DNA of 64,000 bases from Syntrophaceae bacterium (GTDB lineage Bacteria; Desulfobacterota; Syntrophia; Syntrophales; Smithellaceae): positions 6,590 to 70,589 of the forward strand of contig JAGPFA010000002.1 in assembly GCA_018056765.1 (NCBI GenBank). Direction: 5' to 3'. How positions within the stretch are numbered: position 1 is the stretch's first letter; the number at the start of each line of letters is the position of its first letter. The translations under genes and the position numbers were made by a program. The notes under the pieces were generated by a model. The model saw only the letters and a list, made by a program, of their open reading frames with translations, was not told the DNA's origin and searched no databases. This document shows positions 5,877 to 59,104 of the stretch, one piece after another.

Positions 5877-6046
5877 CTTCGTGACTCTTTTCCTTCCGGA
5901 TGATTCTTCATGCCCACCGCTGTAAAAAGATTATGCGAATCAGAAACAAACAATTTCGCCTTTTTCGGCGGCGGTTTCTTGCCTGAACTCACACCATCAT
6001 GTACGATGAGACCGTCCCGGCGACGGACGTCTTTTCGCAGGATGAT

Positions 6047-7621
6047 TCACTCAGGAAGATTGATCCTGCTGCCGGAGAGCAGCACATCATTTTCAGACAT
6101 ATTGTTGAGCCGTCTTAATTCATCAACGGTAATGGAGCAGCTCCTGGCCAGAGAAAAAAGCGTGTCTCCGTCTTTGACCTTATATTTTTTAAGTTGTTTT
6201 TGCGGCACTGCCGACGGTGGCACTCCAGGAACCGGCACAATTATTTTCCTGCCGACAAGAAGCTTGTCGTTCATTTTCATTTTGTTCAAATCCAGAAGCA
6301 CCTGCAGGCTCGTTCCGTGCTTTCTGGCAATGGCAGACAGGTTATCACCGCGCCTCACCGAATAGAGCGAGGTCTGTACAGTTTCTGGCGTATTCTGCCT
6401 TTTTGCTGCTCTCACAGATATGTTGCCGGGCGGCATGGGGCTTCCCGCAATCGCGGCCCCGGCTGTCGTGATGCCGAAAAAATTGCCCACGGAAGCGGCC
6501 ACGGCCTGAGCGATGGTTTTGCGGAAACTGGTTTTTTTAAGCAACATCTCTTCTTCTGCGTTGGAGATATAAGCTGTTTCCAGAAGAATGGCCGGGATAT
6601 CCAGAAGCTTGAGCACACGGAAAGGAGCTTCATGAAAAACCGGATATTTCAAACAGTGCACACGACCGAGCTGATCGAGCAAATCCGAAGCGTAAGTTTT
6701 CGACATATTGATCGTATGCGTCTGAAACATATTGAGGACAATTTCATCGGACTGGTTACTGCTTTCGCCGTTGGGCACACCGCCGATGATATCGGAGAGG
6801 TTCTCATTGTTGGCCAGCAGTCTGGCTGCTTCATTGCTGGCCCCACGCGTGGAAAGACAGTAAACCGAACTGCCTCTGGCCTGACGATTGCGTGCCGCGT
6901 CGGCGTGCACGCTGATGAAAAGGTCCGCGTTGGCCCGCCGTGCTGTATCCAGGCGGTTCTTAAACGACACATAGTAATCCCCGTCGCGCGTCAATATCGC
7001 CCGGTAACCGGGCATCTTGTCGATCTCTTTTTTGATTTCACGGCTGATGGCCAGGACAACATGCTTTTCATAGGTTCCGTTTCTGCCGATGGCTCCGGGA
7101 TCTTCTCCTCCGTGCCCCGGATCAATCACGATCACTCTCTTTTTCAAAGCTTCAGGCGGCGGTTCCGGAAGCACCGCCTCGTCAACAGCCTGTTGCAGGA
7201 TGATATCCACCACCACGCGGTCAGGCTTCCCCATGAATTTTTTGAGTTTGAAAACTTCTACCTTGAAGTACTCGGTCAAAAACAGCTCGGCCCTGCAGAA
7301 AGCTCCGTCATTCTTCGTGAAAACAATCCTGGAGATACCCGGTTTGTCTATGGGCATTTCCTGGGCAAGAGTTTTTATGAAAAATGCGTCGTTGAATTCC
7401 AGAACAAGAATGTTGTCGCTGATGCTGTACCGGTAATCAGGCTCTCCGCTGAGATCGAAGACCACACGCGTGTGGTCGGGCGCTGCCCAGTAACGCACAT
7501 TTGATATTTCCGTAGCGGCAAGTCCCCGCCCTGTCCACAGCAGGACCGCTATAATCAGCAGTGCAAAAAATATTTGTCGTATTTTATGCGCTTGTCGTGA
7601 AAGCATGAAGCAAATTAACAA
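6047..7621 (-). CDS. N-acetylmuramoyl-L-alanine amidase (AMIN domain, Amidase_3 domain, two C-terminal LysM domains)
   Basis: 'VIVIDPGHGGEDPGAIG' and 'DLFISVHADA' are Amidase_3 motifs. Two LysM-like repeats are present: 'YSVRRGDNLSAIARKHG' and 'YKVKDGDTLFSLARSCS'. Confidence 0.85.
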   Translation of the reverse strand: MLICFMLSRQAHKIRQIFFALLIIAVLLWTGRGLAATEISNVRYWAAPDHTRVVFDLSGEPDYRYSISDNILVLEFNDAFFIKTLAQEMPIDKPGISRIVFTKNDGAFCRAELFLTEYFKVEVFKLKKFMGKPDRVVVDIILQQAVDEAVLPEPPPEALKKRVIVIDPGHGGEDPGAIGRNGTYEKHVVLAISREIKKEIDKMPGYRAILTRDGDYYVSFKNRLDTARRANADLFISVHADAARNRQARGSSVYCLSTRGASNEAARLLANNENLSDIIGGVPNGESSNQSDEIVLNMFQTHTINMSKTYASDLLDQLGRVHCLKYPVFHEAPFRVLKLLDIPAILLETAYISNAEEEMLLKKTSFRKTIAQAVAASVGNFFGITTAGAAIAGSPMPPGNISVRAAKRQNTPETVQTSLYSVRRGDNLSAIARKHGTSLQVLLDLNKMKMNDKLLVGRKIIVPVPGVPPSAVPQKQLKKYKVKDGDTLFSLARSCSITVDELRRLNNMSENDVLLSGSRINLPE

Positions 7622-7823
7622 ACTTTTACGCCAACTGCAACAATTATGCTAAAAAAAAGAAACTCTCCCATGTTTACGAACGCAAACAAACACTCAAATC
7701 AGATGACAGCCGGCTCCGCCAATTAAAAAGGTTGACAACAGCTTTTGTAAATGCGATTTTCGCTCGACCAAACAATAATATCGGAGAGCAACCTTGCCGT
7801 CCAACCCTTTCAAAGAGGCACTG

Positions 7824-9371
7824 ATGAATCCGGCCCTCTTTCCTGTTACCTGGGAGCTTGTTCCGGGAAGGGGCGCCAAAGAACCGCAGCAACAACAGGC
7901 GCTGGAGCTGGCCGGCCGCGCAGCGGCCGGAGGGAGGATTGCCGCCCTTACCATTACGGACAATCCGGGCGGCACACCGGCCCTGTCGGCCGACTTCATG
8001 AGTATGGAGATTGTGAAAAAAGGCATCGAGCCGCTCGTTCATTTCACCAGCAAAGATAAAAACCGCAGTCAGATGGAAAGTCAGCTCTATGCGCTCGACC
8101 GTGCAGGCGTGCGTAATCTGCTGGTGATGACCGGCGACTATCCGGTTTGCGGTTTCGGAGGCAGACCGGCACCTGTTTTCGACCTTGATCCTGTGCACAC
8201 CTTACGTCTGATCACACAAATGAACCGCGGCCTGGAACATCCCGGTCCCAAAGGGAGCATCCGGCTTCAAACATCCGATTTTTTTGCCGGGGCAGTCGTC
8301 TCTCCCTTCAAGGCGACACAAGCGGAACAGATGCTGCAGTACTACAAGCTCAAAAAGAAGATAGAAGCAGGCGCACAATTCATCGTCACGCAACTGGGCT
8401 ATGATGCGCGGAAGTTCCATGAAGTACTTAGGTACATGAAACAAAATGGCATCAACGTGCCGCTGATCGGTAACATCTACATCCTCCCTTTCGGGGCAGC
8501 CAAAATGATGAACCGCAATGATTTGCCGGGCTGTGTGGTCACAGACAAGCTGCTGGCCGATATCGACCGAGAGAGGAACGCTCCGGACAAAGGTGCCAGG
8601 GCCAGAATTCTACGGGCCGCCCGGATGTACGCCATTCTGAAAGGCATGGGCTTCAGCGGCGTCCATATCGGAGGCCACAATATCACCTGTGAGCAGGTGG
8701 AAGAGGTAATCCGTCTGGGTGAGGAGCTTTCTCCCGAATGGCCGAATCTTGTAAAGTTTTTTGATTATCCCATGGAGAACGGATTTTATTACTTTGAAAA
8801 AGATCCGCAAACCGGTTTAAACAGTGAAACACAGTCAAAAAGACAGACCGGCTCCCCCGATGTATCCATTGGGCTGACCTACGGACTTTCACGTTTTTTT
8901 CACCGGCTGATGTTTGAGCCTGGCAAAAATTTATACTCTTTGATGAAAAAGTTCAGTGAAAGGATCGAGGGTTCGAAGGCGGAAGGACTCTTTCATAAGC
9001 TGGAGCACCTGACCAAGGTGGCCCTTTTTGACTGCCGTGATTGCGGGGACTGCGCTTTGATCGATCTGGCCTATCTTTGCCCAATGTCCCAATGCCCCAA
9101 AAACCAACGTAACGGCCCCTGCGGCGGAAGCTTCGGCGGTTGGTGTGAAGTATATCCCCAAAAACGTAAGTGCGTTTTTGTCCGTGCCTATGCCCGCCTG
9201 GCAAAATACGGCGAGGAGGAATGTTTAGGCAAGGAAATCGTTCCACCCTGCAACTGGGATCTTTATCAGAGCTCGTCATGGATCAATTACTACACGGGCA
9301 AAGATCATACGGCGAGAAAAACCGGCAATAAAACCGCCCCTTCGGGCGAGCCCTTACTGCCTACCCGATAA
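7824..9371 (+). CDS. metF: methylenetetrahydrofolate reductase fused to a Cys-rich MetV-like (MTHFR C-terminal) domain
   Basis: MTHFR-like N-terminus ('ITDNPGG', 'HFTSKD', 'NLLVMTGDYP'). C-terminal 'CRDCGDCALIDLAYLCPMSQCPKNQRNGPCGG'. The ATG at 7824 has an AGAGG RBS. The ORF track starts at a TTG 30 nt upstream. Confidence 0.8.
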   Translation: MNPALFPVTWELVPGRGAKEPQQQQALELAGRAAAGGRIAALTITDNPGGTPALSADFMSMEIVKKGIEPLVHFTSKDKNRSQMESQLYALDRAGVRNLLVMTGDYPVCGFGGRPAPVFDLDPVHTLRLITQMNRGLEHPGPKGSIRLQTSDFFAGAVVSPFKATQAEQMLQYYKLKKKIEAGAQFIVTQLGYDARKFHEVLRYMKQNGINVPLIGNIYILPFGAAKMMNRNDLPGCVVTDKLLADIDRERNAPDKGARARILRAARMYAILKGMGFSGVHIGGHNITCEQVEEVIRLGEELSPEWPNLVKFFDYPMENGFYYFEKDPQTGLNSETQSKRQTGSPDVSIGLTYGLSRFFHRLMFEPGKNLYSLMKKFSERIEGSKAEGLFHKLEHLTKVALFDCRDCGDCALIDLAYLCPMSQCPKNQRNGPCGGSFGGWCEVYPQKRKCVFVRAYARLAKYGEEECLGKEIVPPCNWDLYQSSSWINYYTGKDHTARKTGNKTAPSGEPLLPTR

Positions 9372-9437
9372 AAATCGCGCACGATGTAATTTTCACGTTG
9401 ATGATTACAGGCGGATAGTGTAGAAGCACCTCCACAC

Positions 9438-9514
9438 GGGCAATTAGCTCAGCTGGATAGAGCGTTGGCCTCCGAAGCCAAAGGCCGTGAGTTCGAATCT
9501 CACATTGCCCACCA
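9438..9514 (+). tRNA. tRNA-Arg (anticodon CCG)
   Basis: Cloverleaf folded by hand. Acceptor GGGCAAT/ATTGCCC. Anticodon stem TTGGC/GCCAA with loop CUCCGAA. T-arm GTGAG-TTCGAATC-CTCAC. Encoded CCA. Confidence 0.9.
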
Positions 9515-9790
9515 TGTAATAACAAGCACTTAGGATGTCGCCGAAAGCGTTTTCTGGTCTGCATGCGGCCTGCCCAAAGGCCCGATTCCTCCCAACCCGG
9601 CGGCCGGATGCATTCATGACCTGAGGCCAGACGTCTTGCGCCCCTGCTGTCTGCAGAAACAATCGCCGATATTTAAGTTTGCATTTCTCCTGACGGGCTG
9701 CAACAAACATCGTCATTTCGCCGGCCTCTCCCGGCCGCGGTAGCAGTCAGGTTGGGCTATGTGCTTTGTCGGTTTTATACCTTTAAATTC

Positions 9791-9819
9791 TTGAAAGAAT
9801 CAGGCAGTTTTGATACGCT
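9791..9819 (+). promoter_or_regulatory. candidate sigma70 promoter for aspS
   Basis: TTGAAA, 17 nt spacer, TACGCT, about 70 nt upstream of the aspS start. Confidence 0.3.
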
Positions 9820-9886
9820 CCGCGCGGTAATTTTATCTCCGGATTATCCTTAAATCCGGTGTCTTGAGCAGAAAGGGTTTAATTCA

Positions 9887-12007
9887 ATGAACTTTTCCGG
9901 ACGGATATTTTGCGGCAATCTGACGGCCCGGCATATCGGCCACCAGGTCCAGCTTTGTGGCTGGGTTGATGCCTACCGCGACCATGGCGGAATAATTTTT
10001 GTTCATCTGCGGGACAGAAGCGGAATCGTGCAGATTGTTTTTGATCCGGAGATTACGCCCCGCGCAGTGAGTGAAACGGCCGCCTCTCTAAGAACAGAAT
10101 TTTGTGTTTGTGTGGAAGGCGAAGTGAGACAGAGACTCGCCGGAACGGAAAATCCTCACATCGAAACAGGCCAAATTGAAGTCATCGTCGATACTCTTTC
10201 ACTTCTTTCAGAATCCGAGCCGTCCCCTTTCACCATATCAGAAAAAGCCATGGTGGCAGGCGCGGACAAAAGCGCCACAGAGAGCGTCTCCGAAGAAGTG
10301 CGGCTGCAGTACCGCTATCTCGACATCCGCCGCCACTCCATGTACCGCAATCTGCTTTTACGCCATAAGATTTTTCAGTGCGTACGCAGTTTCCTTGACG
10401 AGGAGGGCTTTATCGAGGTGGAAACGCCGATCCTGACGATGAGCACGCCCGAGGGAGCACGCGACTACCTCGTGCCCAGCCGTGTTCATCAGGGCAGCTT
10501 CTACGCTCTGCCGCAATCGCCGCAGCTTTTCAAACAGCTTCTGATGATCGGCGGTCTGGAGCGCTATTTTCAGCTTGCCCGCTGTTTCCGTGATGAAGAT
10601 CTGCGCCCCAACCGCCAGCCGGAGTTTACACAGCTCGATCTGGAAGCCTCCTTCATCGACGAAGAGTTTCTTTATGCGCTTGTCGAAGAGCTTACTGTCC
10701 GGATGTTCGCCGTAGGCGGTATAACGCTTTGCCGGCCTTTCCCACGCATGAGCTATACAGAGGCAATGGATACCACAGGTTCGGACCGGCCTGACCTGCG
10801 TTTCGGCCTTCGCATTGTGGATGCGACCGATCTGTTCACCGATACGAATTACTCGATTTTCCGCCAGATACTAAAACGCGGCGGCTGCATCAAAGGCATC
10901 AATGTTAAAGGGCAGTCGGAGGCTCTGAGCAAAAACGTCCTGCAAAACGAATACGCCAGGGAAATCGCCCCTTCTTTCGGCGCCAAAGGAATGACCTGGA
11001 TGCGCGCCGAGGGAGGGAGGCTCGAATCAAACATTGTCCAGTTTTTCAGTGAAACGGAACTGGCGGGTCTGCAAAAGCGCTTCGACCTGCAAGACGGCGA
11101 TGTGCTCATCATGGTCGCCGACCCCTCCTACACGACGGTCATATCTGCACTGGGGCAACTTCGCCTCCATCTGGCAGGACGCCTGGGGCTGATTCCCGAA
11201 AACACCTTTTACCCGGTATGGATCACCGAATTCCCTCTTTTTGAACCAACAGATGATGGGGGAATTACCTCCAGTCATCATCCCTTCACCGCGCCGGACC
11301 GCACTGATTTCGACCCGAAAAACATTGAGGAGCTGCTCAGCCTCCATTCACGGGCCTACGATCTGGTAATGAACGGTGAAGAGTTGGGGGGCGGGAGCAT
11401 CCGCATCAACAACCGCGATCTTCAGCGAAAGATTTTTGCCGCGCTGGGGCTTACTGAAGACGACATGCGTGAAAAATTCGGTTTCTTCCTCAGAGCTTTT
11501 GACCACGGAGCGCCACCGCACGGAGGGCTGGCGCTGGGAATGGATCGGGTCGTGTCGATGATTCTCGGAACACAGTCGATCCGCGATGTCATCGCTTTTC
11601 CGAAAAACCGTTCGGCCGCCTGCCCGCTTACGGGCGCCCCCGCAGCCGTCAAGCATGAACAACTGGCGGAACTCGGTCTTTTAAATCTGGGCGGCAAACA
11701 AGATCTACCCGGTGCCGCACAAAAAGAAAACAGGCTTGACCGCCTGTCGTGGCTGTCACGTATCGGCATTGCACCGGACGAACGGCCCGTCATGGAAGAC
11801 GTCATCAGACAAGCCGAAGAACTGGCCGTCATCGCCTGCCGCGAAGCGGGAGATGACGAACCGGTGCGATCGGTCATGCCTGCCCCACATCGCACCCGGC
11901 CGGGGATCGAGGCAAAACGCATGGACGCGGCCGCAGACGGCCGGCTGATGAAAAGCGCACCTGTGGTCAAGGGAAATTTTTATAAAGTTCCGGCCATTCT
12001 GGAATAA
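9887..12007 (+). CDS. aspS: aspartyl-tRNA synthetase with an in-frame C-terminal GatC-like module
   Basis: A full bacterial AspRS core is present ('FVHLRDRSGIVQIV', 'FYALPQSPQLFKQLLM', 'GGGSIRI', 'PPHGGLALGMDR', 'VIAFPKNRSA'). About 110 extra residues follow, ending '...GNFYKVPAILE', which match the GatC pattern. Confidence 0.9.
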   Translation: MNFSGRIFCGNLTARHIGHQVQLCGWVDAYRDHGGIIFVHLRDRSGIVQIVFDPEITPRAVSETAASLRTEFCVCVEGEVRQRLAGTENPHIETGQIEVIVDTLSLLSESEPSPFTISEKAMVAGADKSATESVSEEVRLQYRYLDIRRHSMYRNLLLRHKIFQCVRSFLDEEGFIEVETPILTMSTPEGARDYLVPSRVHQGSFYALPQSPQLFKQLLMIGGLERYFQLARCFRDEDLRPNRQPEFTQLDLEASFIDEEFLYALVEELTVRMFAVGGITLCRPFPRMSYTEAMDTTGSDRPDLRFGLRIVDATDLFTDTNYSIFRQILKRGGCIKGINVKGQSEALSKNVLQNEYAREIAPSFGAKGMTWMRAEGGRLESNIVQFFSETELAGLQKRFDLQDGDVLIMVADPSYTTVISALGQLRLHLAGRLGLIPENTFYPVWITEFPLFEPTDDGGITSSHHPFTAPDRTDFDPKNIEELLSLHSRAYDLVMNGEELGGGSIRINNRDLQRKIFAALGLTEDDMREKFGFFLRAFDHGAPPHGGLALGMDRVVSMILGTQSIRDVIAFPKNRSAACPLTGAPAAVKHEQLAELGLLNLGGKQDLPGAAQKENRLDRLSWLSRIGIAPDERPVMEDVIRQAEELAVIACREAGDDEPVRSVMPAPHRTRPGIEAKRMDAAADGRLMKSAPVVKGNFYKVPAILE

Positions 12008-12017
12008 AGGATTATTT

Positions 12018-13211
12018 ATGGACTCTGTTTTTTCCTATCAAAACGAAGCACCATCCGGCAACATCAACGGCCCTCTCGCGGGACTGAAGATCGCTGTGCA
12101 ACCGACAATCGGTGTCGCCGGCTGGCCCGCCCAGGCAGGTTCGGAGGCGCTCGCCGGATATTCGTCACCGGACGACGCCACGGTAATCGCCAGACTCAGA
12201 CAAGGAGGTGCTATGCTTGCCGGCCTGACACACGCCGGTGAACTGGGCCTGGGTATCAACAACAAAAGCACGGCCGGCAGACCCACCGAGGCTAAAATAA
12301 CCGATGCGGAAGTGATGCTTGATCTGACAGGCGAGGCTCGCCTGAGCGCCGCACGCAGCAATCTATGGGGTTTTAAACCTTCGTGGGGACTCCTGCCCCG
12401 CACCGGGATTGCCGGACTCATTCCCTCGATGGAAGCCTGCGGAATTCTGGCGCGTGATCCGGCAACGATCCGTGCGATCCTCGAAACAACGGCGGGAGCC
12501 GATGACAGGGATTTTTCGCAGCCGGCGCTTCGCTACAAAGTAGTAAACGCCGACGAAATCAAACCGGGACAACTCACGCTGGGCATCATCAAAGATGCGA
12601 CCGCTCTGCTTTCCGGCACCAAGCAGGAGGCGTTTAAAGAGCAGATGAATGAACTTAAGAAATCCGGTTTTCAAATCAGGGATCTTTCCTGGCCGGACTA
12701 TCGTTTGTGCCTGACCGTGCATCGCCTCGTCGGGTCGGTCGAAGCCTCGTCCGCCGCCGGCCGGTACGATTCCGTACGCTTCGGCAAACGCGCCCCGGGA
12801 GCCAGAAACTGGAATGAGATGTACCTGCAATCCCGCGGAGCTTTTTTCGGCACGCTCATAAAAAGCTATCTGATTCAGGGTGCATATTTTCAGTTTGAGC
12901 GCTATGACGCCTACGAAAATGCCTGCCGGATACGCGCCCGCCTTTTAATCCAGGTCCAACGCCTCTTTGGACAGGCTGATGTGCTGGTTTTTCCGGTACA
13001 AAGACCGGCTGACACCGAAACACTAAGCGGCCTCTACGATCAGTGCAAGTTTACGGCTCACGCCAATGTCACCGGTCTGCCCGCACTGCACGTTCCGCAC
13101 ATTTCAGCGGACAGTCCGGGCATCGAACTTCAGGCAACGCACGGCGACTGCGGCCGGGTGATCGCCCTTGGCGAATATCTTCACCGGCTCAGAGCAGGAG
13201 GGAGGGCATAA
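12018..13211 (+). CDS. GatA-like amidase-fold subunit, shortened (397 aa), catalytic triad apparently absent
   Basis: It aligns with GatA at 'GFKPSWGLLPRTG', 'ACGILARD' and 'SVEASSAAGRYDSVRFG'. However, 'IKDN' reads 'AVQPT', the 'GGSSGGS' block is missing and 'DTGGSIR' reads 'DLTGEAR'. It sits between aspS::gatC and gatB. Confidence 0.75.
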   Translation: MDSVFSYQNEAPSGNINGPLAGLKIAVQPTIGVAGWPAQAGSEALAGYSSPDDATVIARLRQGGAMLAGLTHAGELGLGINNKSTAGRPTEAKITDAEVMLDLTGEARLSAARSNLWGFKPSWGLLPRTGIAGLIPSMEACGILARDPATIRAILETTAGADDRDFSQPALRYKVVNADEIKPGQLTLGIIKDATALLSGTKQEAFKEQMNELKKSGFQIRDLSWPDYRLCLTVHRLVGSVEASSAAGRYDSVRFGKRAPGARNWNEMYLQSRGAFFGTLIKSYLIQGAYFQFERYDAYENACRIRARLLIQVQRLFGQADVLVFPVQRPADTETLSGLYDQCKFTAHANVTGLPALHVPHISADSPGIELQATHGDCGRVIALGEYLHRLRAGGRA

Positions 13212-14641
13212 TGGAATTTGAAGCTGTCATCGGATTGGAAATACATATCGAACTCAACTGCGCCACAAAACTGTTTTGCGACTGCCCCAACAATCCCGGC
13301 GACGATGCCAACACCAACACCTGCCCGGTATGCCTGTGGTTTCCCGGCGCCTCCGCCCGCCTGAGCCGCGCCGCTCTGGAAAAAGCGGCCCTGTTGTGCC
13401 TGGGGCTCAATTGTGAACTCCAGACAAAAAGCGCCTTTGACCAGAAGGTCTATTATTACCCGGATCAGCCCAAAGGCTATCAGCTTTCTCAGGCCCATCG
13501 GCCTCTGGCGCGCGGCGGCTGGGTGGACATCACGGATGAAGACGGTTCCGTCAAGAGGCTCAACATTCACCATATTCACATGGAAGAGGATGTGGCCAAA
13601 CTGGTGCATGAAATGGACGGAAGAACACCAGTTTCCCTGGTGGACTTCAACCGGGCTGGCGCACCGCTTGTCGAAATAGTCACTGAACCGGATTTCCGTA
13701 CACCGCATCACGCGATGGAATTCCTCAAAACACTGCGCACGCAGGTCCGTTACGTCGGATCCTCCGAGTGCAGCATGGAAAACGGCACCATGCGTGCCGA
13801 CGCAAATATTTCCATACGCCCCAGGGGCACAAATCAGATGAACACCAAGGTCGAGGTCAAAAACATGAACTCCGTCCGCCACGTGGGAGATGCCATCGCC
13901 CATGAAATCAGCCGTCAAAGCGCCGCGGTGCGGGCGGGCGAAACAATTACGGAACATACACGCTTATGGGACCCGGACAAAAAAACCACACTTCCGATGA
14001 GGGAAAAATTCGAGGCACCTTGTATCCCTGACCCGTCCATCCCCGAAATCATACTCCAACCGGACGAAATCAGCGCCTGGCGTTCGCGGCTTCCGGAAAT
14101 GCCGGCGGCACTGGCCAAGCGCTTTGTCAGCCAACACGGCCTTTCCATTGAAGAGGCGACATATCTGAGTTCTGATCCGGAAACCGCCTCCTACTTTGAA
14201 GAACTGGTTCGTCACGGTGTGGCCGCCCGGACCGCCATGCACTGGGTGAATACTCAACTGCTTCCTGCTTTACGCCAGCGCAATCTGGAGATTGCCCAGG
14301 CGCCTGTCACGCCACAAAGACTGGCACGGCTTCTTGCCATGCTCGCCGGTGACGAGATCAACGCCGCGGCAGCACGCGATGTTCTTTCGCTCATGTTTGA
14401 GTGCAATGATTCCCCCGAAGATATTGTAAAAAACCGGGGGCTGGGACAGTTATCCAACGGAGATGAGCTTACCGCCATGGTGGAACGTGTACTGGCCCGG
14501 CAGACCGCAGCAGTGGAGGATTTCAAAAGCGGCCAGGCCAAAGCCATGGGCTTTTTGATCGGACAGGTTATGCAGGCCTCCGGCGGCAAAGCCAATCCCA
14601 AAGTAATCAAGGAAATGCTGACGCGAAAGCTCTCCTCCTGA
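13211..14641 (+). CDS. gatB: aspartyl/glutamyl-tRNA amidotransferase subunit B
   Basis: 'FEAVIGLEIHIELN..KLFCDCPN', 'YYYPDQPKGYQLSQ' and 'IHHIHMEEDVAKLVH' are GatB motifs, with a YqeY-like tail. The ATG overlaps the gatA-like stop (TAATG). The ORF-track extension to 13043 lies inside the previous gene. Confidence 0.9.
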   Translation: MEFEAVIGLEIHIELNCATKLFCDCPNNPGDDANTNTCPVCLWFPGASARLSRAALEKAALLCLGLNCELQTKSAFDQKVYYYPDQPKGYQLSQAHRPLARGGWVDITDEDGSVKRLNIHHIHMEEDVAKLVHEMDGRTPVSLVDFNRAGAPLVEIVTEPDFRTPHHAMEFLKTLRTQVRYVGSSECSMENGTMRADANISIRPRGTNQMNTKVEVKNMNSVRHVGDAIAHEISRQSAAVRAGETITEHTRLWDPDKKTTLPMREKFEAPCIPDPSIPEIILQPDEISAWRSRLPEMPAALAKRFVSQHGLSIEEATYLSSDPETASYFEELVRHGVAARTAMHWVNTQLLPALRQRNLEIAQAPVTPQRLARLLAMLAGDEINAAAARDVLSLMFECNDSPEDIVKNRGLGQLSNGDELTAMVERVLARQTAAVEDFKSGQAKAMGFLIGQVMQASGGKANPKVIKEMLTRKLSS

Positions 14642-14703
14642 AGTGCTCACAATAAATCACCATATCATCATCTGTCTGTATGGCAAAACATGGTAGCGAC
14701 CCA

Positions 14704-14727
14704 CTCCACGGGGTGGAGCTTTGTTTT
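14704..14727 (+). terminator. candidate terminator after gatB
   Basis: CTCCAC-GGG-GTGGAG hairpin followed by CTTTGTTTT. Confidence 0.4.
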
Positions 14728-14885: not shown

Positions 14886-16076
14886 TTACAGCATTTCAAA
14901 AATACCCGCCGCGCCCATACCGCCGCCGATACACATGGAAACAATACCACGTTTTGAACCGCGGCGCTTCATTTCGTGCAGAAGCTGTGCGGTCAGCTTG
15001 GCTCCGGTGCATCCCAGCGGATGGCCAATCGCAATGGCACCGCCATTGGGATTGATGTCGCCCGCCCAGTAGCGGTCTTCAATACCGACTGTGCGGCAGG
15101 AATAGATCGCCTGTGACGCAAAGGCTTCGTTGATTTCAAAAAGATCGATATCTTTCGTCGTCAAACCGGCCATTTTCAACACTTTCGGAATTGCATAAGC
15201 AGGACCGACTCCCATTTCTTCCGCCTTACAGCCAGCGACCGCATAATGGGTCAACTTGGCCAGAGGCTTCAATCCGAGGGCTTTGGCCTTTTCGGCAGTC
15301 ATCAGCATGGAAAAGGCCGCTCCGTCGGTCATCTGCGAAGAGTTCGCCGCCGTCACCGAACCACCGGCTTTGAAAGGTGATTTCAATTTCCCCATTGCTT
15401 CGAGACTTGCCGGCCAACGTACTCCGTCATCCGTGTCAAAAGTATAATATTCTCTGACGCGTTTACCGTTCTTGATTGCATATTTCACAGCCTGGATCGG
15501 AATGATTTCTTCCTTGAATTTTCCGGCCTTGATGGCTTCATGGGCACGGCGGTTACTCTCCACGCCCATCTTATCCTGATCTTCACGCGAAATATTATGG
15601 TTCATGGCCACATTTTCCGCCGTGTTGCCCATGTTGATATAGACATTGGGCATACTGCCGTCAAATTTCCAGTCCGGATGCGGGCGCATGGCGGTGCCGC
15701 CCATCGGAATATGCGTCATTGTCTCGCAACCGCCGGCAATGATGATCTCCGACCAGCCGGCACGGATTTTCGCCGTCGCATCGGCAATCGCCTGAAGACC
15801 GGAGGCGCAAAAACGGTTGACGGTCATACCGGAAACGGAAATCGGGAGCCCGGCGCCCATCGCCAGAATTCTTCCCACATTCATCCCCGTTTCAGCTTCC
15901 GGGAAAGAACAACCAACAATTACATCATCTATATCTTCAGGCTTTACCTGAGGAACTCTGGCGAGCAATCCTTTGAGTACCTGGATAGCAAATTCGTCCG
16001 CCCGGGTGTTGGCAAGGCTGCCTCTTCTGCGAGCGCCTGGACTTCTTACTGATTCAACAATTACAGCATCACTCAT
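14886..16076 (-). CDS. fadA: acetyl-CoA C-acyltransferase (3-ketoacyl-CoA thiolase)
   Basis: 'NRFCASGLQAI' carries the active-site Cys. 'NEAFASQ', 'NPNGGAIAIGHPLGCTGA' and 'MCIGGGMG' are thiolase signatures. Confidence 0.9.
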   Translation of the reverse strand: MSDAVIVESVRSPGARRRGSLANTRADEFAIQVLKGLLARVPQVKPEDIDDVIVGCSFPEAETGMNVGRILAMGAGLPISVSGMTVNRFCASGLQAIADATAKIRAGWSEIIIAGGCETMTHIPMGGTAMRPHPDWKFDGSMPNVYINMGNTAENVAMNHNISREDQDKMGVESNRRAHEAIKAGKFKEEIIPIQAVKYAIKNGKRVREYYTFDTDDGVRWPASLEAMGKLKSPFKAGGSVTAANSSQMTDGAAFSMLMTAEKAKALGLKPLAKLTHYAVAGCKAEEMGVGPAYAIPKVLKMAGLTTKDIDLFEINEAFASQAIYSCRTVGIEDRYWAGDINPNGGAIAIGHPLGCTGAKLTAQLLHEMKRRGSKRGIVSMCIGGGMGAAGIFEML

Positions 16077-16156
16077 GATTTTCCTCCTTCATTATTCTGG
16101 AAGGCGCGGAGGCTTTCATTCGTTTTTCAACCCGCCGCGCATAGTTGCAAAATATT

Positions 16157-18577
16157 TTAGTTACGCAGCGGTTTACCCTTGGTCAGCATGTGTACAATAC
16201 GATCATGCGTCTTGGTTTCGCCCATCAGGCTCAGGAAGGCCTCTCTTTCGAGATCGAGGATTTCCTGCTCCGAAACATATGTTCCCTCGGCGCAGTCGCC
16301 GCCGGAAAGGACATAGGCCACTTTTCTCGATACAACAAGATCGTAATCGGAGATAAAGTTACCGTAGCGCATGTTCATAATAATGGCATCCACCAGGCCG
16401 CGGAAATTCTCGCCCATCACAGGAATGCGGGCAGGCCTGGGCGGTTTGTAACCAGCCATGTTCAAAGACAGAACAAGCTGCTTGGCTTCATAAATCTGCT
16501 GATCGCGGCTCATGTTGATGGTTTCCGACTTGCGGATATATCCCAGTTCCATGGCTTCCATCGCACTGGTGGCAACTTTGGCCATCGCAATGTTTTCGAA
16601 AGCTTTCCCCATGTGATACTGCAAATTCAAACCGCCTTCAATGACACCATCCGGAATTCCTTCGGTAAGGCGCAGCAGAAGCTCTTTGCAGCCTCCGCCG
16701 GCGGGAACGACACCGACACCGACTTCCACGAGTCCCATATAGGTTTCACCGTTGGGCAGACAACGGGCGCCGTGCATGGCGATTTCGCAACCTCCGCCCA
16801 GTGCCAGGCCGGCGGGAGCAGTCACAACCGGTTTGGCCAGGTATTTCATTCTCATATTGCCGTTTTGCAGAGCTGCAATGCTCTGGTCCAGCAGATCCCA
16901 CTGACCCTGCTGTGCAGCAACCAATACTGCAAACACGTTGGCACCGGCCGAGAAGGCACGTTCATCATGGTTGGCAACCACCATGCCCGCAAAATCTTTC
17001 TCAACGATATCACACGAATCGGCAAGCATCTGGGTCAGCGGTTCGTCAATCGAATTCATCTTGGTGTGGAATTCCAGACAGACAACGCCGTCTCCGATGT
17101 CCACGAGAGTAGCGCTTTCATTTTGTTTAACGATCTTGTTACGGCTTTTCAGATCGGGCAGCAGGATGATCTTTGGATTGGCATCAATCTTGGCATAGCC
17201 CTGCTTTTCAAAATCGTAGTAATATTTCCCGTCTGCCTTGGTTGTGTAAAATGACTCACAACCTTTCTTGAGCATTTCTTCGACTTTCTTGGGAACTGTC
17301 AGTTTCAGACTCTTCATGACTTCGATGGCTTCTTTGACGCCTACGGCATCCCATGCCTCGAAGGGCCCCAGTTTGTTGTTGTAGCCCCACTTCATGGCAT
17401 TGTCGATGGCCATGATGTTATCACAGATCTCACCGACCCGGTTCGCCGAATAGATGAAGGTTTTGCACAAATAGGAACGGGCAAAATCACCGGCTTTGTC
17501 ATCTGCATTAAATACGTGCTTGATGGAGTCGGCGACGTTTTCCAGCTTCTTTGCAGCGGAAATCGATTCAAACTTCGGCTTACCGGCAGGCACATACTCC
17601 ATCGTGTCGATGTCGATCATCATCTTGACGGTTTTACCGCTGGCATCCTTGGTTTTCTTGTAATATCCCTGTTTGGTCTTATTACCCAACCACTTGTTTG
17701 CAATCATTTTTTCCAGGAAAGGATCGGCCTTGAACATATCTCTTTCTTCATCGTCCGGAACTGCATCGTAGAGGTTCTTGCCGACATGGTAACCCACGTC
17801 GAGGCCGACGAGATCCATTGTGCCGAAAACGGCCGTACCGGGATGCCCCAGCGCCTTGCCGACGATGGCATCAACTTCGTCCACTTTCAGCTTCTTTTCC
17901 AACATGAGTTTGATACAGCTCGACAGATCGTACACACCGATGCGGTTACCGACAAAGTTCGGCTTGTCTTTACAGATAACCACGCCCTTGCCCAGGACTT
18001 CCTCGCTGAATTTCACCATGAAATCGACGATTTCTTTGTCTGTTTCCTCGCCGGGAATGATTTCCATAAGCTTCATGTAGCGCGGAGGATTGAAGAAATG
18101 GGTCCCCAGAAAACGTTTTTTCAAAGCGGGGCTGAATTTCGCGCTGATGTCTTTAATGGGAATGCCTGAAGTATTTGTCGAAACGATACAGGTCGGTTTG
18201 ACAACTTTTTCCACTTTGGCAAACAATTCCTGCTTGATTTTCAGGTTTTCAACAACCACCTCGCAAACCCAGTCCACATCCGCCAGCCAATCCAGATTGT
18301 CCTCGAAGTTGCCGACTTTGACCATCGAGGCGTTCTTTTTTGAGAAAAAACTGGCGGGTTTTGACTTCGTCGCGCCGGCCAGGCCATTTGCCGCAAAGCG
18401 GTTCCGCCATGCGGGACTTTTTTCCGTCAGGCCTTTTTTCTTGTCATCTTCCGTCAGTTCGAATGGGATGATATCGAGCAGGTAGCACTCGATACCGGCA
18501 TTGGTCAGATGAGCCGCGATACCCGCGCCCATGACTCCCGCACCTAATACAGCAGCTTTCTTGATTTCTAGTGACAT
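16157..18577 (-). CDS. fadN: bifunctional 3-hydroxyacyl-CoA dehydrogenase / enoyl-CoA hydratase, FadN-type domain order (dehydrogenase N-terminal, crotonase C-terminal)
   Basis: The Rossmann motif 'AVLGAGVMGAGIAAH' is at the N-terminus. A crotonase-like segment 'AFSAGANV...GLALGGGCEIAMH' is in the C-terminal half. The protein is 806 aa and lies upstream of the thiolase. Confidence 0.88.
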   Translation of the reverse strand: MSLEIKKAAVLGAGVMGAGIAAHLTNAGIECYLLDIIPFELTEDDKKKGLTEKSPAWRNRFAANGLAGATKSKPASFFSKKNASMVKVGNFEDNLDWLADVDWVCEVVVENLKIKQELFAKVEKVVKPTCIVSTNTSGIPIKDISAKFSPALKKRFLGTHFFNPPRYMKLMEIIPGEETDKEIVDFMVKFSEEVLGKGVVICKDKPNFVGNRIGVYDLSSCIKLMLEKKLKVDEVDAIVGKALGHPGTAVFGTMDLVGLDVGYHVGKNLYDAVPDDEERDMFKADPFLEKMIANKWLGNKTKQGYYKKTKDASGKTVKMMIDIDTMEYVPAGKPKFESISAAKKLENVADSIKHVFNADDKAGDFARSYLCKTFIYSANRVGEICDNIMAIDNAMKWGYNNKLGPFEAWDAVGVKEAIEVMKSLKLTVPKKVEEMLKKGCESFYTTKADGKYYYDFEKQGYAKIDANPKIILLPDLKSRNKIVKQNESATLVDIGDGVVCLEFHTKMNSIDEPLTQMLADSCDIVEKDFAGMVVANHDERAFSAGANVFAVLVAAQQGQWDLLDQSIAALQNGNMRMKYLAKPVVTAPAGLALGGGCEIAMHGARCLPNGETYMGLVEVGVGVVPAGGGCKELLLRLTEGIPDGVIEGGLNLQYHMGKAFENIAMAKVATSAMEAMELGYIRKSETINMSRDQQIYEAKQLVLSLNMAGYKPPRPARIPVMGENFRGLVDAIIMNMRYGNFISDYDLVVSRKVAYVLSGGDCAEGTYVSEQEILDLEREAFLSLMGETKTHDRIVHMLTKGKPLRN

Positions 18578-36907: not shown

Positions 36908-36915
36908 AAAACAGG

Positions 36916-37288
36916 CCGGAGAAGATCATAAGCCGGGTTCTGTTCCACGCCCGGGTTGCCCCTGACACGGTGATGATCATTCCTCTGGGACGCAGATTGC
37001 CCTGCGCCTCTAGCGACACTACCCGGGAACATCAGACGGGCCGCCTTCAAACGTCCCCCTATTTGGTCTTGCTCCGGATGGGGTTTACCATGCCTTTTCC
37101 GTCACCGGAAAAGCGGTGAGCTCTTACCTCGCCTTTTCACCCTTACCCGCCTGGGGCGGGCGGTATGTTTTCTGTGGCACTTTCCCTGGGGTCACCCCCG
37201 GTCGCCGTTAGCGACCATCCTGCCCTGCGGAGCCCGGACTTTCCTCGAACAGCTCATGGCTGCCCGCGATCATCTGATCTTCTCCGAC
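36916..37288 (-). ncRNA. rnpB: RNase P RNA, bacterial type A
   Basis: The minus strand contains GAGGAAAGTCCGGGCTC (P4 5' strand) and ACAGAACCCGGCTTA (P4 3' strand). The P1 stem CGGAGAAGATCA/TGATCTTCTCCG defines the ends, giving about 373 nt. Confidence 0.9.
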
Positions 37289-38867: not shown

Positions 38868-38943
38868 TGGTGGGCCCACCTGGGATCGAACCAGGGACCT
38901 ACCGGTTATGAGCCGGTGGCTCTACCAACTGAGCTATAGGCCC
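38868..38943 (-). tRNA. tRNA with anticodon CAU (elongator Met, or Ile2 if lysidine-modified)
   Basis: Cloverleaf folded by hand. Acceptor GGGCCTA/TGGGCCC. Anticodon stem ACCGG/CCGGT with loop CUCAUAA. T-arm CCTGG-TTCGATC-CCAGG. Encoded CCA. It lacks initiator features. Confidence 0.88.
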
Positions 38944-39079: not shown

Positions 39080-40828
39080 CTATTTTGACGCGCGCCTGCG
39101 GGTAGAGCTGGTTGTTTTCACAGGCGGCTCGTCTTCATCGAGTTCCGGTACCTCCTCATACGGCTCTGTCTGATCCTCAATGATGCCTTCTTCAAGACCA
39201 GCAACCGCCATGCGATCGCTGATGCCGAACCTCATTCGTAAAACCTTCTCTTCCCGCGGCGTTAATGTAGAAAGAATTTTACGTGTCTGAGCGGCCAGAT
39301 CCATACTGATTGTCGCCTCCGAAGGTGACATGATCTTTTTGTCTTCGATAAAATCGCCCAGATGGCTGTCTTCCTCCTCACCAATCGGAGTTTCCAGGGA
39401 AATAGGCTCTTTTGCGATTTTCAGGACTTTGCGTACTTTTTCCAGAGGGAACTCCATTTTGTCGGCAATCTCCTCCGGGGTAGGTTCGCGCCCCAGTTCC
39501 TGAACAAGGTAGCGGGAAGTCCGAATCAGTTTATTGATGGTTTCGATCATATGCACGGGGATCCGAATAGTGCGCGCCTGATCGGCGATAGCGCGCGTAA
39601 TGGCCTGCCTGATCCACCATGTCGCATAAGTCGAGAACTTGTAGCCACGCTGGTATTCAAATTTGTCAACGGCTTTCATCAGGCCGATATTGCCCTCCTG
39701 GATCAGATCAAGAAACTGCAGGCCGCGGTTGGTGTATTTCTTCGCAATACTCACGACAAGACGTAAGTTGGCCTCCACCAGTTTTCTTTTAGCCAGCTCC
39801 GCCTTTGTCTCGCCTTCCTCAATGGACTCGACGACACTTTTTAAGGTCGAAGTGGGAATGCCCACTTCTTTGGCGATATGTTTGATACGCTTTTGCGCCT
39901 CGGTAACCGCCTGCTTGCTGCGGTGCAGCCATTCGACAGTCACTTTTGCTTCTTTGGCGACTTTTTTCTCCTCCTGGCTTGATTTTCTCATTCTGGACCA
40001 GGCTTTTTCCATCTGGGTGAGCGTCATGCCCGATTCTTTTTTGTATTGATTGATCACCCGTTCCGATTTCTCTATTTCATCAGCCAAAAAGCGAAGTTGC
40101 GTGATGAAGCGGTGCATCTGCTTCTTATTGAAGCGAATTTTTCGGCATAACGTAATGATGTTTTTAGAGTTTTTGGCCTGTTCCGCCGTCAGGGTCTCGC
40201 GCTGTTTGGGGCGCATGGTTTTAGATTTAAGTTTTTCACGAAGCTTTTCATTACGGTCATTGAACATCTTGATTCTCTCGATAAGACGAAGCACCCGGTC
40301 CTTGTGCTCATCATCGTCGAGGAATCCTTCTTCTCCTTCAATATTGTCTACAATACTTTTAATACGAATCTCATCCGTCGCCAACTTCTCGCCGATGTTG
40401 ATGACTTCCTCGATGGAAACGGGCAGACTGAAAATAGCCCACATGGTCTCGCGGGCTCCCTCTTCGATTTTTTTCGCTATCTCTACCTCTCCCTCCCGGC
40501 TCAAAAGCGATACCAGGCCCATTTCACGTAAATACATTTTAACCGGATCGCCTGTTTTACCTGCCGCGGGAGCCAAAGTCATCATTTCAGAAAACTTGGC
40601 TGACAGACTGTCGTCCGCCGGTTTTTTTACCACTAGTTTTTCACCCTGTTCCGTATCGATGATATCAATGTTCTTCTCACCGAATAACATAATGATTTCA
40701 TCTATCTGGTCCGATGAATTTATATCAGGCGGCAGCAGTTCATTGACATCGTCATAGGTTAAAAACCCCTTTTGCTCCCCCAGCGAAAGTAACTTTTTGA
40801 ATTCATCAGACTGAAGTTCTTTGGCCAT
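39080..40828 (-). CDS. rpoD: primary RNA polymerase sigma factor RpoD, with an aberrant C-terminus (region 4.2 not recognisable)
   Basis: Regions 1.2-4.1 are intact ('[63 protein letters not shown]', '[15 protein letters not shown]'). After 'MRFGI' the sequence is acidic and unrelated to 'TLEEVG..F.VTRERIRQIE.KALRKLRHP'. Confidence 0.88.
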
Positions 40829-40856
40829 TTGGCTTCCCCCGAATTTTTATTGTCGT

Positions 40857-42617
40857 TTATTGTAATTGCTTCTCTTGTCTTATTAAATCCTGCTTTTGGA
40901 AAGTCAACTCGCGTATCATTTCCTCGTCACCATCTTCCTGAGCCTGCCTTAACTGATGCTGAAGCAGGCGTTTTTTTTCTCTGTACCACTTTTCTTTTAT
41001 CCGGCGGATATTGTCTGCGAAATTACGCCCTACCATATTCTCATCGGTCGGAGGGGCCTCGATACTTAATTTATAAATCATGTCTTTGAGCGGTTTGTCC
41101 GCATCCGTAGGCAGGAGCACCTGTAGATCTATAAAACCAAGCAGTTTATAGGTCTGAATCATTTTTGCCCCCAAATCCTTCAGCTGCTCATCGAGAAATA
41201 AATCAATAATTTCTTCGCTCTCCACAAGCAAGATATTTTGCGGATACTCAAGCATCAAACGAATCAGGTTGACCTCAAGAGCGCTCCTGCCCGTTTGTGC
41301 CGTCTGACCGGGGCTGCCCTGGGCCGGCCTTGTGCGGCTTGTTTTTCGATAAGCTTCTTTTTTCAATAAAGCCTGATCTATCCCCAATTTCTCGGATATC
41401 CGTTTAATGAAGAGATTCCTTTCCAGACCATCTCCGATTTTTTCCAGGAACTCCATCGCTGTCTTGAGCAGATCACGGTTTTCCTCAAAAGTTTTGCCGT
41501 CTCCCAGGACATTGTCAATATAATAATCACTGACTGTGGGGGCGGCGGCAATCAAAGCAGCCATTTTTTCTTTTCCATGTTTTTTGACAAATTCATCCGG
41601 GTCGCTGCCATCAGGCAGTACCAGCGCACGTGCGCGCATATTGGCGGCCAAAAACAGCTCCAGAGCCCGGTCGAGTGCCCGGCGCCCCGCCTCGTCCGGA
41701 TCGAACAAGGCGACCACGTCCTTGGTGTAGCGACGCAAAAGATCCAGATGTTCTCTGGTCAGAGCCGTTCCCAGGGTCGCCACCACATTGCGTATACCGG
41801 CATCCCACAAAGATATAACGTCGAAGTATCCTTCCACGATCAGGCAAAAACCTTCCTGTCGGATCGCCTCTCTGGCCCTGTTCAGTCCGTATAAATTTTT
41901 CCCTTTGGTATAGACTGATGATTCCGGTGAGTTTAGGTATTTCGGTTCGCCACGGCCAATGATTCTGCCGCCGAATGCGATCACCTCGCCGAAAACATTC
42001 TCAATGGGAAAGATCAAACGGCCGCGAAAGCGATCATAGAAGCCTTCTTCCCTGCCGGCAACGACCAATCCCGCCTGCTCGGCCAGTTTCAAGGACAGTC
42101 CGCCCCCTTCCAGATGATCAGCAAGAGATCTCCATCTATCCGGCGCGTATCCCAGCCTGAATTGCCTGGAAACCTCTTCCGTTAAAGAGCGTGCCTGCAG
42201 GTAATCGCGGGCGGCCTTGCCCTCCGGTGACGAGAGATTACCGGCAAACCAATTAGCAGCCCTGAGGTTAATTCCGATAATGTCGTCGCGTTTTTCATCT
42301 TTATCGCCGCCCCGACCAAAAGTCCTGACCGGAAGAGTAACACCCGTTTTTTCCGCCAGATGACGAATAGCCTCAGGAAAACTCATGTCGGCAATTTTCA
42401 TCAGCAGCGTGATGGCATTGCCTCCTTCTCCACATCCGAAACAGTAAAAAATCTGTTTTTCACGATTAACGGTAAAGGAGGGGGTTTTTTCCTGGTGAAA
42501 AGGGCAGAGTCCCAGATAATTTCTGCCTGCTTTTTTTAACGTCAGGTACTCGCCCGCGAGTTCGACAATATCCACCCTGCTTTTAATCTCTTCAATCTTG
42601 CTGTCGTCAAAACGCAC
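40857..42617 (-). CDS. dnaG: DNA primase
   Basis: Zinc finger 'GLCPFHQEKTPSFTVNREKQIFYCFGCGEGGN'. TOPRIM 'LIVEGYFDVISL' and 'ALFDPDEAG'. Confidence 0.92.
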   Translation of the reverse strand: MRFDDSKIEEIKSRVDIVELAGEYLTLKKAGRNYLGLCPFHQEKTPSFTVNREKQIFYCFGCGEGGNAITLLMKIADMSFPEAIRHLAEKTGVTLPVRTFGRGGDKDEKRDDIIGINLRAANWFAGNLSSPEGKAARDYLQARSLTEEVSRQFRLGYAPDRWRSLADHLEGGGLSLKLAEQAGLVVAGREEGFYDRFRGRLIFPIENVFGEVIAFGGRIIGRGEPKYLNSPESSVYTKGKNLYGLNRAREAIRQEGFCLIVEGYFDVISLWDAGIRNVVATLGTALTREHLDLLRRYTKDVVALFDPDEAGRRALDRALELFLAANMRARALVLPDGSDPDEFVKKHGKEKMAALIAAAPTVSDYYIDNVLGDGKTFEENRDLLKTAMEFLEKIGDGLERNLFIKRISEKLGIDQALLKKEAYRKTSRTRPAQGSPGQTAQTGRSALEVNLIRLMLEYPQNILLVESEEIIDLFLDEQLKDLGAKMIQTYKLLGFIDLQVLLPTDADKPLKDMIYKLSIEAPPTDENMVGRNFADNIRRIKEKWYREKKRLLQHQLRQAQEDGDEEMIRELTFQKQDLIRQEKQLQ

Positions 42618-58698: not shown

Positions 58699-59104
58699 AA
58701 TGCCTCCTTTGGCCGTATTTTCATAACTCCCGTGCAGGAGTTGTTTTCCCTTGCCGACCCCGCCACAAAGTGCCGTCTTACACACTGCGCCGGTTACGTC
58801 AAAAGTGGTGAACTATTTTAAAACGGCAAAAAATGCAATCAAATATTTAATCGGATAGGTGCCGGATGACAAGCATTACACCCCGGGAAGAGACAGCTCT
58901 TTGTCGGCTTATCATTTTTGCCCGGGCCACCGGTAAAGAATCACACAAATGAATGGTTTTTAAAAAAGACTTTATTAAACAAGCGACAAGACGGATCGGA
59001 TAATCACGTTTTGGCCTGGCAGGCGGGAACAACTAAATGAGAAGGATATTTAAAGAGCAGACCTTTGACAGTGGCCTGCTCTTTAAACAATCCTGTTGCG
59101 CGGT

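Follow-up and report, generated by a model that had tools for sequence, protein, structure and literature searches.

Does a gene that joins an aspartyl-tRNA synthetase (AspRS) to a GatC-like tail, with genes resembling gatA and gatB directly behind it, encode a tethered machine for making Asn-tRNA(Asn), and would that machine still take its nitrogen from glutamine? The question is raised by a 64,000-nucleotide (nt) stretch of DNA from a Syntrophaceae bacterium (contig JAGPFA010000002.1 of assembly GCA_018056765.1), referred to here as the window, in which an aspS::gatC fusion gene, a gatA-derived gene that we call gatA* and gatB follow one another (Table 1). The best explanation, to which we assign a probability of roughly 60%, is that these three genes (9887-14641) form one operon encoding a covalently tethered Asn-transamidosome composed of an AspRS paralogue-GatC fusion, GatA* and GatB, which most likely runs on free ammonia.

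The synthetase portion of the fusion is of the bacterial type. Family models of AspRS span residues 7-598 and score far above their cutoffs (NF001750, 752 bits against 443; TIGR00459 aspS_bact, 693 bits against 374), the anticodon-binding OB fold, class II core and GAD insertion are all present, and the QSPQ, FRDED..R and GLALGMDR motifs are readable in the translation. Past the AspRS, the frame stays open through NLGGKQDLPGAAQKEN into a 93-residue tail, by way of a linker that is itself conserved (LNLGG..LPG.A.KEN in the consensus of orthologous tails). The original prediction, made from the letters of this stretch, had described an open reading frame (ORF) of 706 codons containing a complete bacterial AspRS and continuing via a linker into about 93 residues of GatC type that begin at position 11726, with a gatA-like gene 10 nt downstream and gatB overlapping that gene by 1 nt. 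Each element was reproduced: the AspRS models end at residue 598, the ORF runs without an internal stop, 11726 encodes residue 614, the first to be aligned with GatC in the profile-profile comparison described below, gatA* starts 10 nt past the fusion stop, and the start of gatB overlaps the stop of gatA* by 1 nt (TAATG). The observation of the tail is confirmed.

The read-through recurs well beyond this contig. When genomes (one per species) were scanned with the 706-residue query, 80 loci were recovered at 67-90% identity, 78 of which keep the tail in frame to the stop codon with the match reaching residue 706; in the remaining two, the match ends at residues 654 and 705. Versions of 706 residues are also found among metagenomic proteins, with hundreds in the protein database. 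No in-frame ATG, GTG or TTG is conserved at the junction, the commonest position being shared by 39 of 79 sequences, which makes separate translation of a free GatC unlikely. Judged by this recurrence, the read-through is genuine and not the assembly artefact against which the original prediction had wished to see the junction checked. By their record titles, most of the loci are from Smithella, Syntrophus, Syntrophaceae and Syntrophales; at 90% identity, a Smithella metagenome-assembled genome (MAG) comes nearest, which makes the source of the window a Smithella-like syntroph. About 30 of the 80 (within L016-L074) have this operon, at 72-75% identity, in MAGs whose titles name Dehalococcoidia, Verrucomicrobia, Planctomycetota, Actinomycetota and other groups; either mis-binning or horizontal transfer would account for these titles.

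Around 70 of the 80 loci have the fusion, gatA* and gatB in this order, and the others lie at contig ends, with the exception of L076. In this locus, from a MAG labelled Lentisphaerae, the fusion (6001-8118, 69% identical) is followed by neither gatA* nor gatB, a 1098-residue gene on the opposite strand coming next, and it may be a transferred or relocated copy. Three genes are split into two ORFs or match pieces, namely the fusion gene of L087 (2183-4243) and gatB of L088 (9409-10867) and L040 (about 9335-10629). These splits are probably metagenome-assembly frameshifts rather than biology.

What the tail is becomes apparent from profiles and not from the single sequence. Used alone, it gives no match to Pfam GatC (PF02686) at E ≤ 1, 13.1 bits against a cutoff of 47.1 with TIGR00135 (E 0.092, over the last 47 residues only), no GatC match in the PDB and, in a word-indexed homologue search, seven short contig-end fragments. 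At the profile level, the homology extends over the whole domain. An alignment of 49 orthologous tails matches one of 11 canonical GatC domains from other AspRS-GatC fusions with 97.5% probability (hhalign, E 6.7e-12, 87 columns), and the 49-tail profile finds GatC of Staphylococcus aureus in the PDB by hmmsearch (2df4_C, E 7.6e-4, residues 5-95 of 100) and aligns over its full length to GatC of Pseudomonas aeruginosa (4wj3_C), in that case with a non-significant E of 0.073. An exhaustive profile search returned 624 matches, mostly AspRS ends since the profile partly covered the AspRS C terminus; the GatC part was covered by only about 30 representatives. Related fusions have tails that pass Pfam GatC outright (P0149, 76 bits; P0159, 62; P0160, 53), and intermediate relatives lie slightly above or below its gathering score of 23 (23.3, 23.2 and 20.8 bits). 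An AlphaFold2 (AF2) model of the tail alone, built from a seq­uence alignment of seven members, was of low confidence (predicted local distance difference test, pLDDT, 48.6), as would be explained by a belt-like subunit having been modelled without its partners, and it was not taken into the fold search. The GatC identity originally proposed thus stands on profiles and intermediate relatives, whereas the single-sequence Pfam test suggested for it fails. The tail is, on this profile evidence, a genuine and full-length but divergent homologue of GatC, and it would be predicted to bind and stabilize the GatA*-GatB pair in the manner of GatC.

The architecture is not new to databases. The best-scoring model for the whole protein is NF009460/PRK12820, named by NCBIfam 'bifunctional aspartyl-tRNA synthetase/aspartyl/glutamyl-tRNA amidotransferase subunit C', which it matches end to end (model positions 18-723, protein residues 1-706) with 1271 bits, below the curated cutoff of 1379. 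It is because of this sub-cutoff score that NCBI labels the clade plain 'aspartate--tRNA ligase'; JGI likewise labels the fusion proteins as plain aspartate-tRNA ligase, and precomputed Pfam annotation marks the GatC domain in one of the best 120 protein-database matches. The orthologues of gatA* are named 'amidase family protein' by NCBI. A literature search found no paper that mentions or characterizes either an AspRS-GatC fusion or a dead GatA. The original prediction named no characterized fusion, which agrees with the literature search, but the architecture was already catalogued.

The protein encoded by gatA* has the shape of GatA. Its AF2 model (pLDDT 82.9; predicted template modelling score, pTM, 0.87) finds as its best Foldseek matches the GatA chains 3kfu_E, 3h0l_A and 4wj3_A, at template modelling (TM) scores of 0.81-0.85 and ahead of other amidases, and the gene lies between gatC and gatB, where gatA would be. 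Its score against the gatA equivalog TIGR00132 is only 186 bits, with a cutoff of 481. Comparison with GatA of Thermus thermophilus and Aquifex aeolicus and with six canonical GatAs from sister operons places Q28 at the catalytic Lys (VAVKDNI) and E106 at the nucleophile Ser (DTGGS), and the GGSSGGS loop that bears the cis-Ser is deleted, so that none of the Ser-cisSer-Lys triad is present (K79, S154 and S178 in S. aureus; triad and nucleophile assignment from PMC2330236). In 65 of 71 orthologues Q stands in place of the Lys, which none of them retains, and the nucleophile position is E in all 71. Of the 162 columns invariant in canonical GatAs of fused operons, 47 survive, and those lost include Y312, R361 and D428 (L094 numbering). 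These are equivalent to Y309, R358 and D425 of S. aureus, which we take to be glutamine-binding residues, a role reportedly described by Nakamura et al. in 2006. E106, H235 and N264-W265-N266 are invariant residues that are new to GatA*.

The gene is not decaying. In all complete loci its ORF is intact, and its ratio of nonsynonymous to synonymous substitution rates (dN/dS), at 0.12-0.31 for unsaturated pairs, is roughly double the values for the fusion (0.06-0.17) and gatB (0.07-0.15); by this measure, gatA* is under purifying selection and is not a decaying pseudogene. Longer versions (420-468 amino acids) with low-complexity inserts rich in Ala, Gly, Pro and Val occur in L043, L051, L057, L064 and L074. 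In the first three of these, the insert sits exactly at the former GGSSGGS loop, which suggests that this surface is now unconstrained. Taken together, the substitutions predict that GatA* is a pseudo-glutaminase, unable to release ammonia from glutamine. The 'gatA-like gene' of the original prediction is borne out in fold and operon place, but not as a working GatA, and the tether to an amidotransferase that it proposed is still the natural reading of the fused GatC and the adjoining amidotransferase genes, except that a complex lacking the triad could not act as the ordinary glutamine-dependent GatCAB that was assumed.

GatB, by contrast with GatA*, scores well above its cutoffs (NF004012, 562 bits against 338; TIGR00133, 484 against 315), carries the Pfam catalytic domain GatB_N (PF02934) and the YqeY tail (PF02637), and matches A. 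aeolicus GatB (3h0l_B) over its full length at E 1e-120. By these measures, it is canonical and intact.

The history of the locus can be read to some extent from its relatives, which fall into two clades. Clade A (L085 and L089-L094, all metagenomic) has tails scoring 53-76 bits with Pfam GatC, followed by a canonical GatA of about 480 amino acids with the catalytic K, GGSSGG[SA] and DTGGSIR. Clade B, which comprises the window, L001-L080, L088, L095 and L096, has the divergent tail followed by a gatA* of about 400 amino acids. In a neighbour-joining tree of the C-terminal half of AspRS, clade B forms one cluster adjoining clade A, and the fusions L087 and L100 fall in a different AspRS lineage. 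The AspRS-GatC fusion has therefore probably arisen at least twice. Because clade A fusions are paired with a canonical GatA, loss of the glutaminase would be derived and coupled to the divergent GatC; we infer that a single loss took place, in a lineage that already had the fusion, and that GatC diverged together with it. An AspRS of the same subfamily in L098 (4894-6741), and also in L097, ends at 615 amino acids, only a little way into the linker ('LAELRLFDLG...'), without GatC and with carA and guaA coming next. This may represent either loss of GatC or a pre-fusion state.

The closest relatives of the window also carry a free AspRS of 590-596 amino acids within a few kb of the fusion operon, 46-47% identical to the fusion core (L003, 3115-4905; L010, about 11761-13482 on the minus strand; L081-L084, 13613-15391 on the minus strand, directly downstream of hisS in a hisS-aspS operon). 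The fused enzyme is therefore a second, dedicated paralogue. The 64-kb window itself contains no stand-alone second AspRS. The fused GatC and the free paralogue in relatives together suggest that the fusion AspRS may be non-discriminating, i.e. that it charges tRNA(Asn) as well. The P. aeruginosa residues H31 and G83, which we take to be specificity markers, are non-discriminating-like in the fusion and the free paralogue alike and are uninformative. A published survey credits Syntrophus aciditrophicus SB with a single copy each of glnS, asnB and the gatCAB set, with a tRNA(Asn) bearing U1-A72, and with no asnS (PMC4206432, Table S1). Without asnS, this organism needs an indirect route to Asn-tRNA, and with its own glnS its Gln-tRNA is independent of the amidotransferase, which is therefore required for Asn-tRNA only. 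This fits an enzyme welded to AspRS.

In the proposed mechanism, each protomer of the AspRS, which is a dimer, would hold one GatA*-GatB heterodimer through its GatC 'belt'. The synthetase would mischarge tRNA(Asn) with Asp, and the resulting Asp-tRNA(Asn) would be handed straight to GatB, which would phosphorylate and then amidate the Asp on the tRNA; in this way, we infer, the fusion would channel its substrate. GatA* would be kept as a scaffold, tunnel or ammonia entry module. With glutamine hydrolysis by GatA* impossible, free ammonia is the simplest alternative donor, and the amide nitrogen would come from NH3/NH4+ taken up directly. Amidotransferases of the GatCAB type accept NH4Cl as donor in vitro (PMC4027206). 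Direct use of ammonia would, speculatively, save the ATP of glutamine synthetase, which is plausible for syntrophs in ammonium-rich digesters. Only tentatively, and with less confidence than in the mechanism itself, would we go further and suggest that in Syntrophales the hard-wired AspRS-GatC/GatA*/GatB complex is the sole route to Asn-tRNA(Asn), ammonia-dependent and glutamine-independent, with the invariant E106 and H235, in what was once the active site, letting NH4+ into the tunnel. If true, it would be an adaptation by which syntrophs, close to the thermodynamic limit in anaerobic habitats rich in ammonium, economize on energy.

A number of points weigh against the tethered, ammonia-fed transamidosome. 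The fusion falls short of the NF009460 cutoff, and its tail, taken singly, of Pfam GatC. Non-discriminating specificity is not readable from sequence, and complex formation, tRNA specificity and channelling are extrapolated from what is known of transamidosomes. The S. aciditrophicus table does not name the genes behind its gatCAB count and lists only one aspS (PMC4206432). A canonical gatA or gatC possibly lies beyond the window and flanks, and E106, H235 and the N-W-N motif could mark a new site for catalysis or for a ligand instead of passively letting ammonia in.

Of the competing explanations, the main one, which we regard as unlikely, retains the tether but has the nitrogen come from glutamine, through a glutaminase (a canonical GatA or some other) from elsewhere in the genome that joins the complex or exchanges with GatA*, the latter being a stabilizing or regulatory placeholder. 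The place of gatA* argues otherwise, as it occupies the very position that gatA has in sister operons, with translational coupling to gatB. The GatC tail and GatA* have also diverged together, which suggests a dedicated pair. No second gatA or other amidase, gatB or gatC was found in the 64-kb window or in the flanks (6-10 kb) of 84 loci, which is the extent of these searches, and in S. aciditrophicus a single gatCAB set was counted (PMC4206432). In favour of this rival, most δ-proteobacteria carry gatCAB (PMC4206432), and GatA look-alikes that compete for the complex have a reported precedent in Tse8 (bioRxiv 10.1101/733030).

It is less probable still that the operon now serves a purpose other than translation, such as a tRNA-dependent or -independent route to some other product or a regulatory complex of an AspRS paralogue. 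Loss of the glutaminase site, the new invariant residues and the separate housekeeping AspRS of relatives would be in keeping with such a change, for which AtzE/AtzG, a vestigial GatA/GatC pair by the title of PDB entry 6c62, offers a parallel; it is harder to square with a GatB and an AspRS core that are highly conserved and score as equivalogs, with dN/dS of the fusion and gatB as low as in housekeeping genes, or with the lack of AsnRS in S. aciditrophicus, for which an amidotransferase is needed. That the tail is an unrelated AspRS extension, or that a frameshift or assembly error conceals a gatC gene of its own, is ruled out to a very high degree by the sequence evidence, as the negative single-sequence searches and low-confidence AF2 model are outweighed by the whole-domain hhalign match, the full-length matches to GatC in the PDB, the intermediate relatives that reach the Pfam cutoff, and a frame that is identical across 78 independent genomes, among which no internal start codon is conserved.

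Table 1. Positions of the fusion operon, its domains and other features of the window
Feature	Coordinates	Strand	Basis or remark
aspS::gatC fusion gene	9887..12007	+	ATG-to-TAA ORF, 706 codons plus stop, 706 amino acids
AspRS anticodon-binding OB fold, residues 21-106	9947..10204	+	Pfam PF01336 (tRNA_anti-codon), 56.8 bits
AspRS class II catalytic core, residues 135-575	10289..11611	+	Pfam PF00152 (tRNA-synt_2), 383.8 bits
Bacterial GAD insertion inside AspRS core, residues 325-420	10859-11146	+	Pfam PF02938, 65 bits
Linker from AspRS to GatC, residues 599-613, NLGGKQDLPGAAQKE	11681..11725	+	Between end of AspRS model and start of GatC alignment
Divergent full-length GatC domain, residues 614-706	11726..12004	+	Profile-profile alignment (hhalign)
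gatA* (gatA-derived, predicted pseudo-glutaminase), 397 amino acids	12018..13211	+	TIGR00132, alignments to GatA structures, AF2/Foldseek
gatB, canonical, 476 amino acids	13211..14641	+	NF004012; match to A. aeolicus GatB 3h0l_B
Terminator-like hairpin, about 60 nt past gatB	14701..14716	+	Pattern scan only
tRNA-Arg(CCG)	9438-9514	+	372 nt upstream of fusion gene
Bacterial class A RNase P RNA	36914-37285	-	
tRNA-Met(CAT)	38868-38943	-	
Ordinary-chromosome context stretches	14886-18577; 39080-42617; 56887-58785	-	

The surroundings of the operon (Table 1) are those of an ordinary chromosome. Upstream of the fusion there is no T-box, riboswitch, leader or other Rfam element, only the tRNA-Arg, and a simple scan detected no sigma-70-like promoter there. 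The hairpin downstream of gatB is the probable end of the operon. The tRNA-Arg is crossed by antisense ORFs of 90 and 67 amino acids (9361-9716), which are probably spurious, and is preceded on the plus strand (7794-9371) by a methylenetetrahydrofolate-reductase-like ORF of 525 amino acids, with weak matches to MetF over residues 44-292 and a long Cys-rich C-terminal extension (...CRDCGDC...CPKNQRNGPCGG...). Directly past the operon, on the opposite strand, lie a thiolase and an 806-residue FadB-like enzyme of β-oxidation. Elsewhere, the window encodes rpoD-dnaG, GTP-dependent phosphoenolpyruvate carboxykinase, ThiC, an enzyme of the CCA/poly(A) polymerase family, a TRAP transporter and a polysaccharide-synthesis cluster. 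Outside the operon, the window contains neither asnS, glnS or asnA/B nor any further gat gene, and tRNA(Asn) was found neither there nor in any of 60 related loci.

GatCAB is viewed as a glutamine-dependent enzyme in which the glutaminase of GatA is coupled to GatB by an ammonia tunnel. A large, conserved clade that retains GatB together with a GatA-shaped subunit but not the glutaminase would be a natural experiment on the purpose of GatA and its tunnel, and bears on whether free ammonia can sustain Asn-tRNA synthesis of translation grade. The covalent AspRS-GatC would also provide a ready-made transamidosome of defined stoichiometry for structures of substrate hand-off. There is a practical consequence for annotation as well. 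Smithella and Syntrophus are key syntrophs in methanogenic digesters and in hydrocarbon degradation, and their genomes look as though they lack gatC (the fusion being labelled AspRS) and gatA ('amidase family protein'), such that metabolic reconstructions will mis-score the Asn-tRNA pathway.

Among known systems, the nearest by architecture is the NF009460/PRK12820 family, which is a database name and under whose cutoff the window fusion scores. The Asn-transamidosomes of T. thermophilus (3KFU) and P. aeruginosa (4WJ3) have the same components, and it is on their GatA chains that the GatA* model superposes best; they differ in that they are non-covalent and contain a GatA that is an active glutaminase (PMC2330236), whereas in the window AspRS and GatC are one polypeptide and GatA* is without the triad. 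Clade A fusions share both the AspRS subfamily and the order fusion-gatA-gatB and differ by their canonical GatC and GatA; L087 and L100 carry an independent AspRS-GatC fusion. A second AspRS for tRNA-dependent Asn synthesis has parallels in the aspS2-gatCAB2 operon of Clostridium acetobutylicum (Saad et al. 2012, as cited in PMC4206432) and in the AspRS2 and GatCAB of Deinococcus-Thermus (PMC4206432). Unlike those of the window operon, the clostridial and Deinococcus-Thermus genes are separate and their GatA is active, and the clostridial operon is under T-box control, for which the window operon has no counterpart upstream. Yeast mitochondrial GatFAB is a lineage-specific variation on the GatC belt in which NH4Cl supports transamidation and truncation of GatF lowers glutaminase activity and raises NH4Cl-dependent transamidation (PMC4027206), although GatF is a free subunit and the GatA active site is kept. 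Mycobacterium smegmatis has a gatC-gatA fusion polypeptide (PMC7541841), the GlnRS of Deinococcus radiodurans bears a GatB-like YqeY tail (PMC1865053), and AtzE/AtzG (PDB 6c62) is a vestigial GatA/GatC complex whose original role is lost. These cases indicate that amidotransferase subunits can be fused to partners and to synthetases, and that their original function may be lost, but none of the three joins an AspRS-GatC tether to a GatA lacking glutaminase within an operon for translation. The more unusual feature of this locus is therefore not the fusion, which is catalogued, but the conserved glutaminase-dead GatA that is encoded one gene past it.

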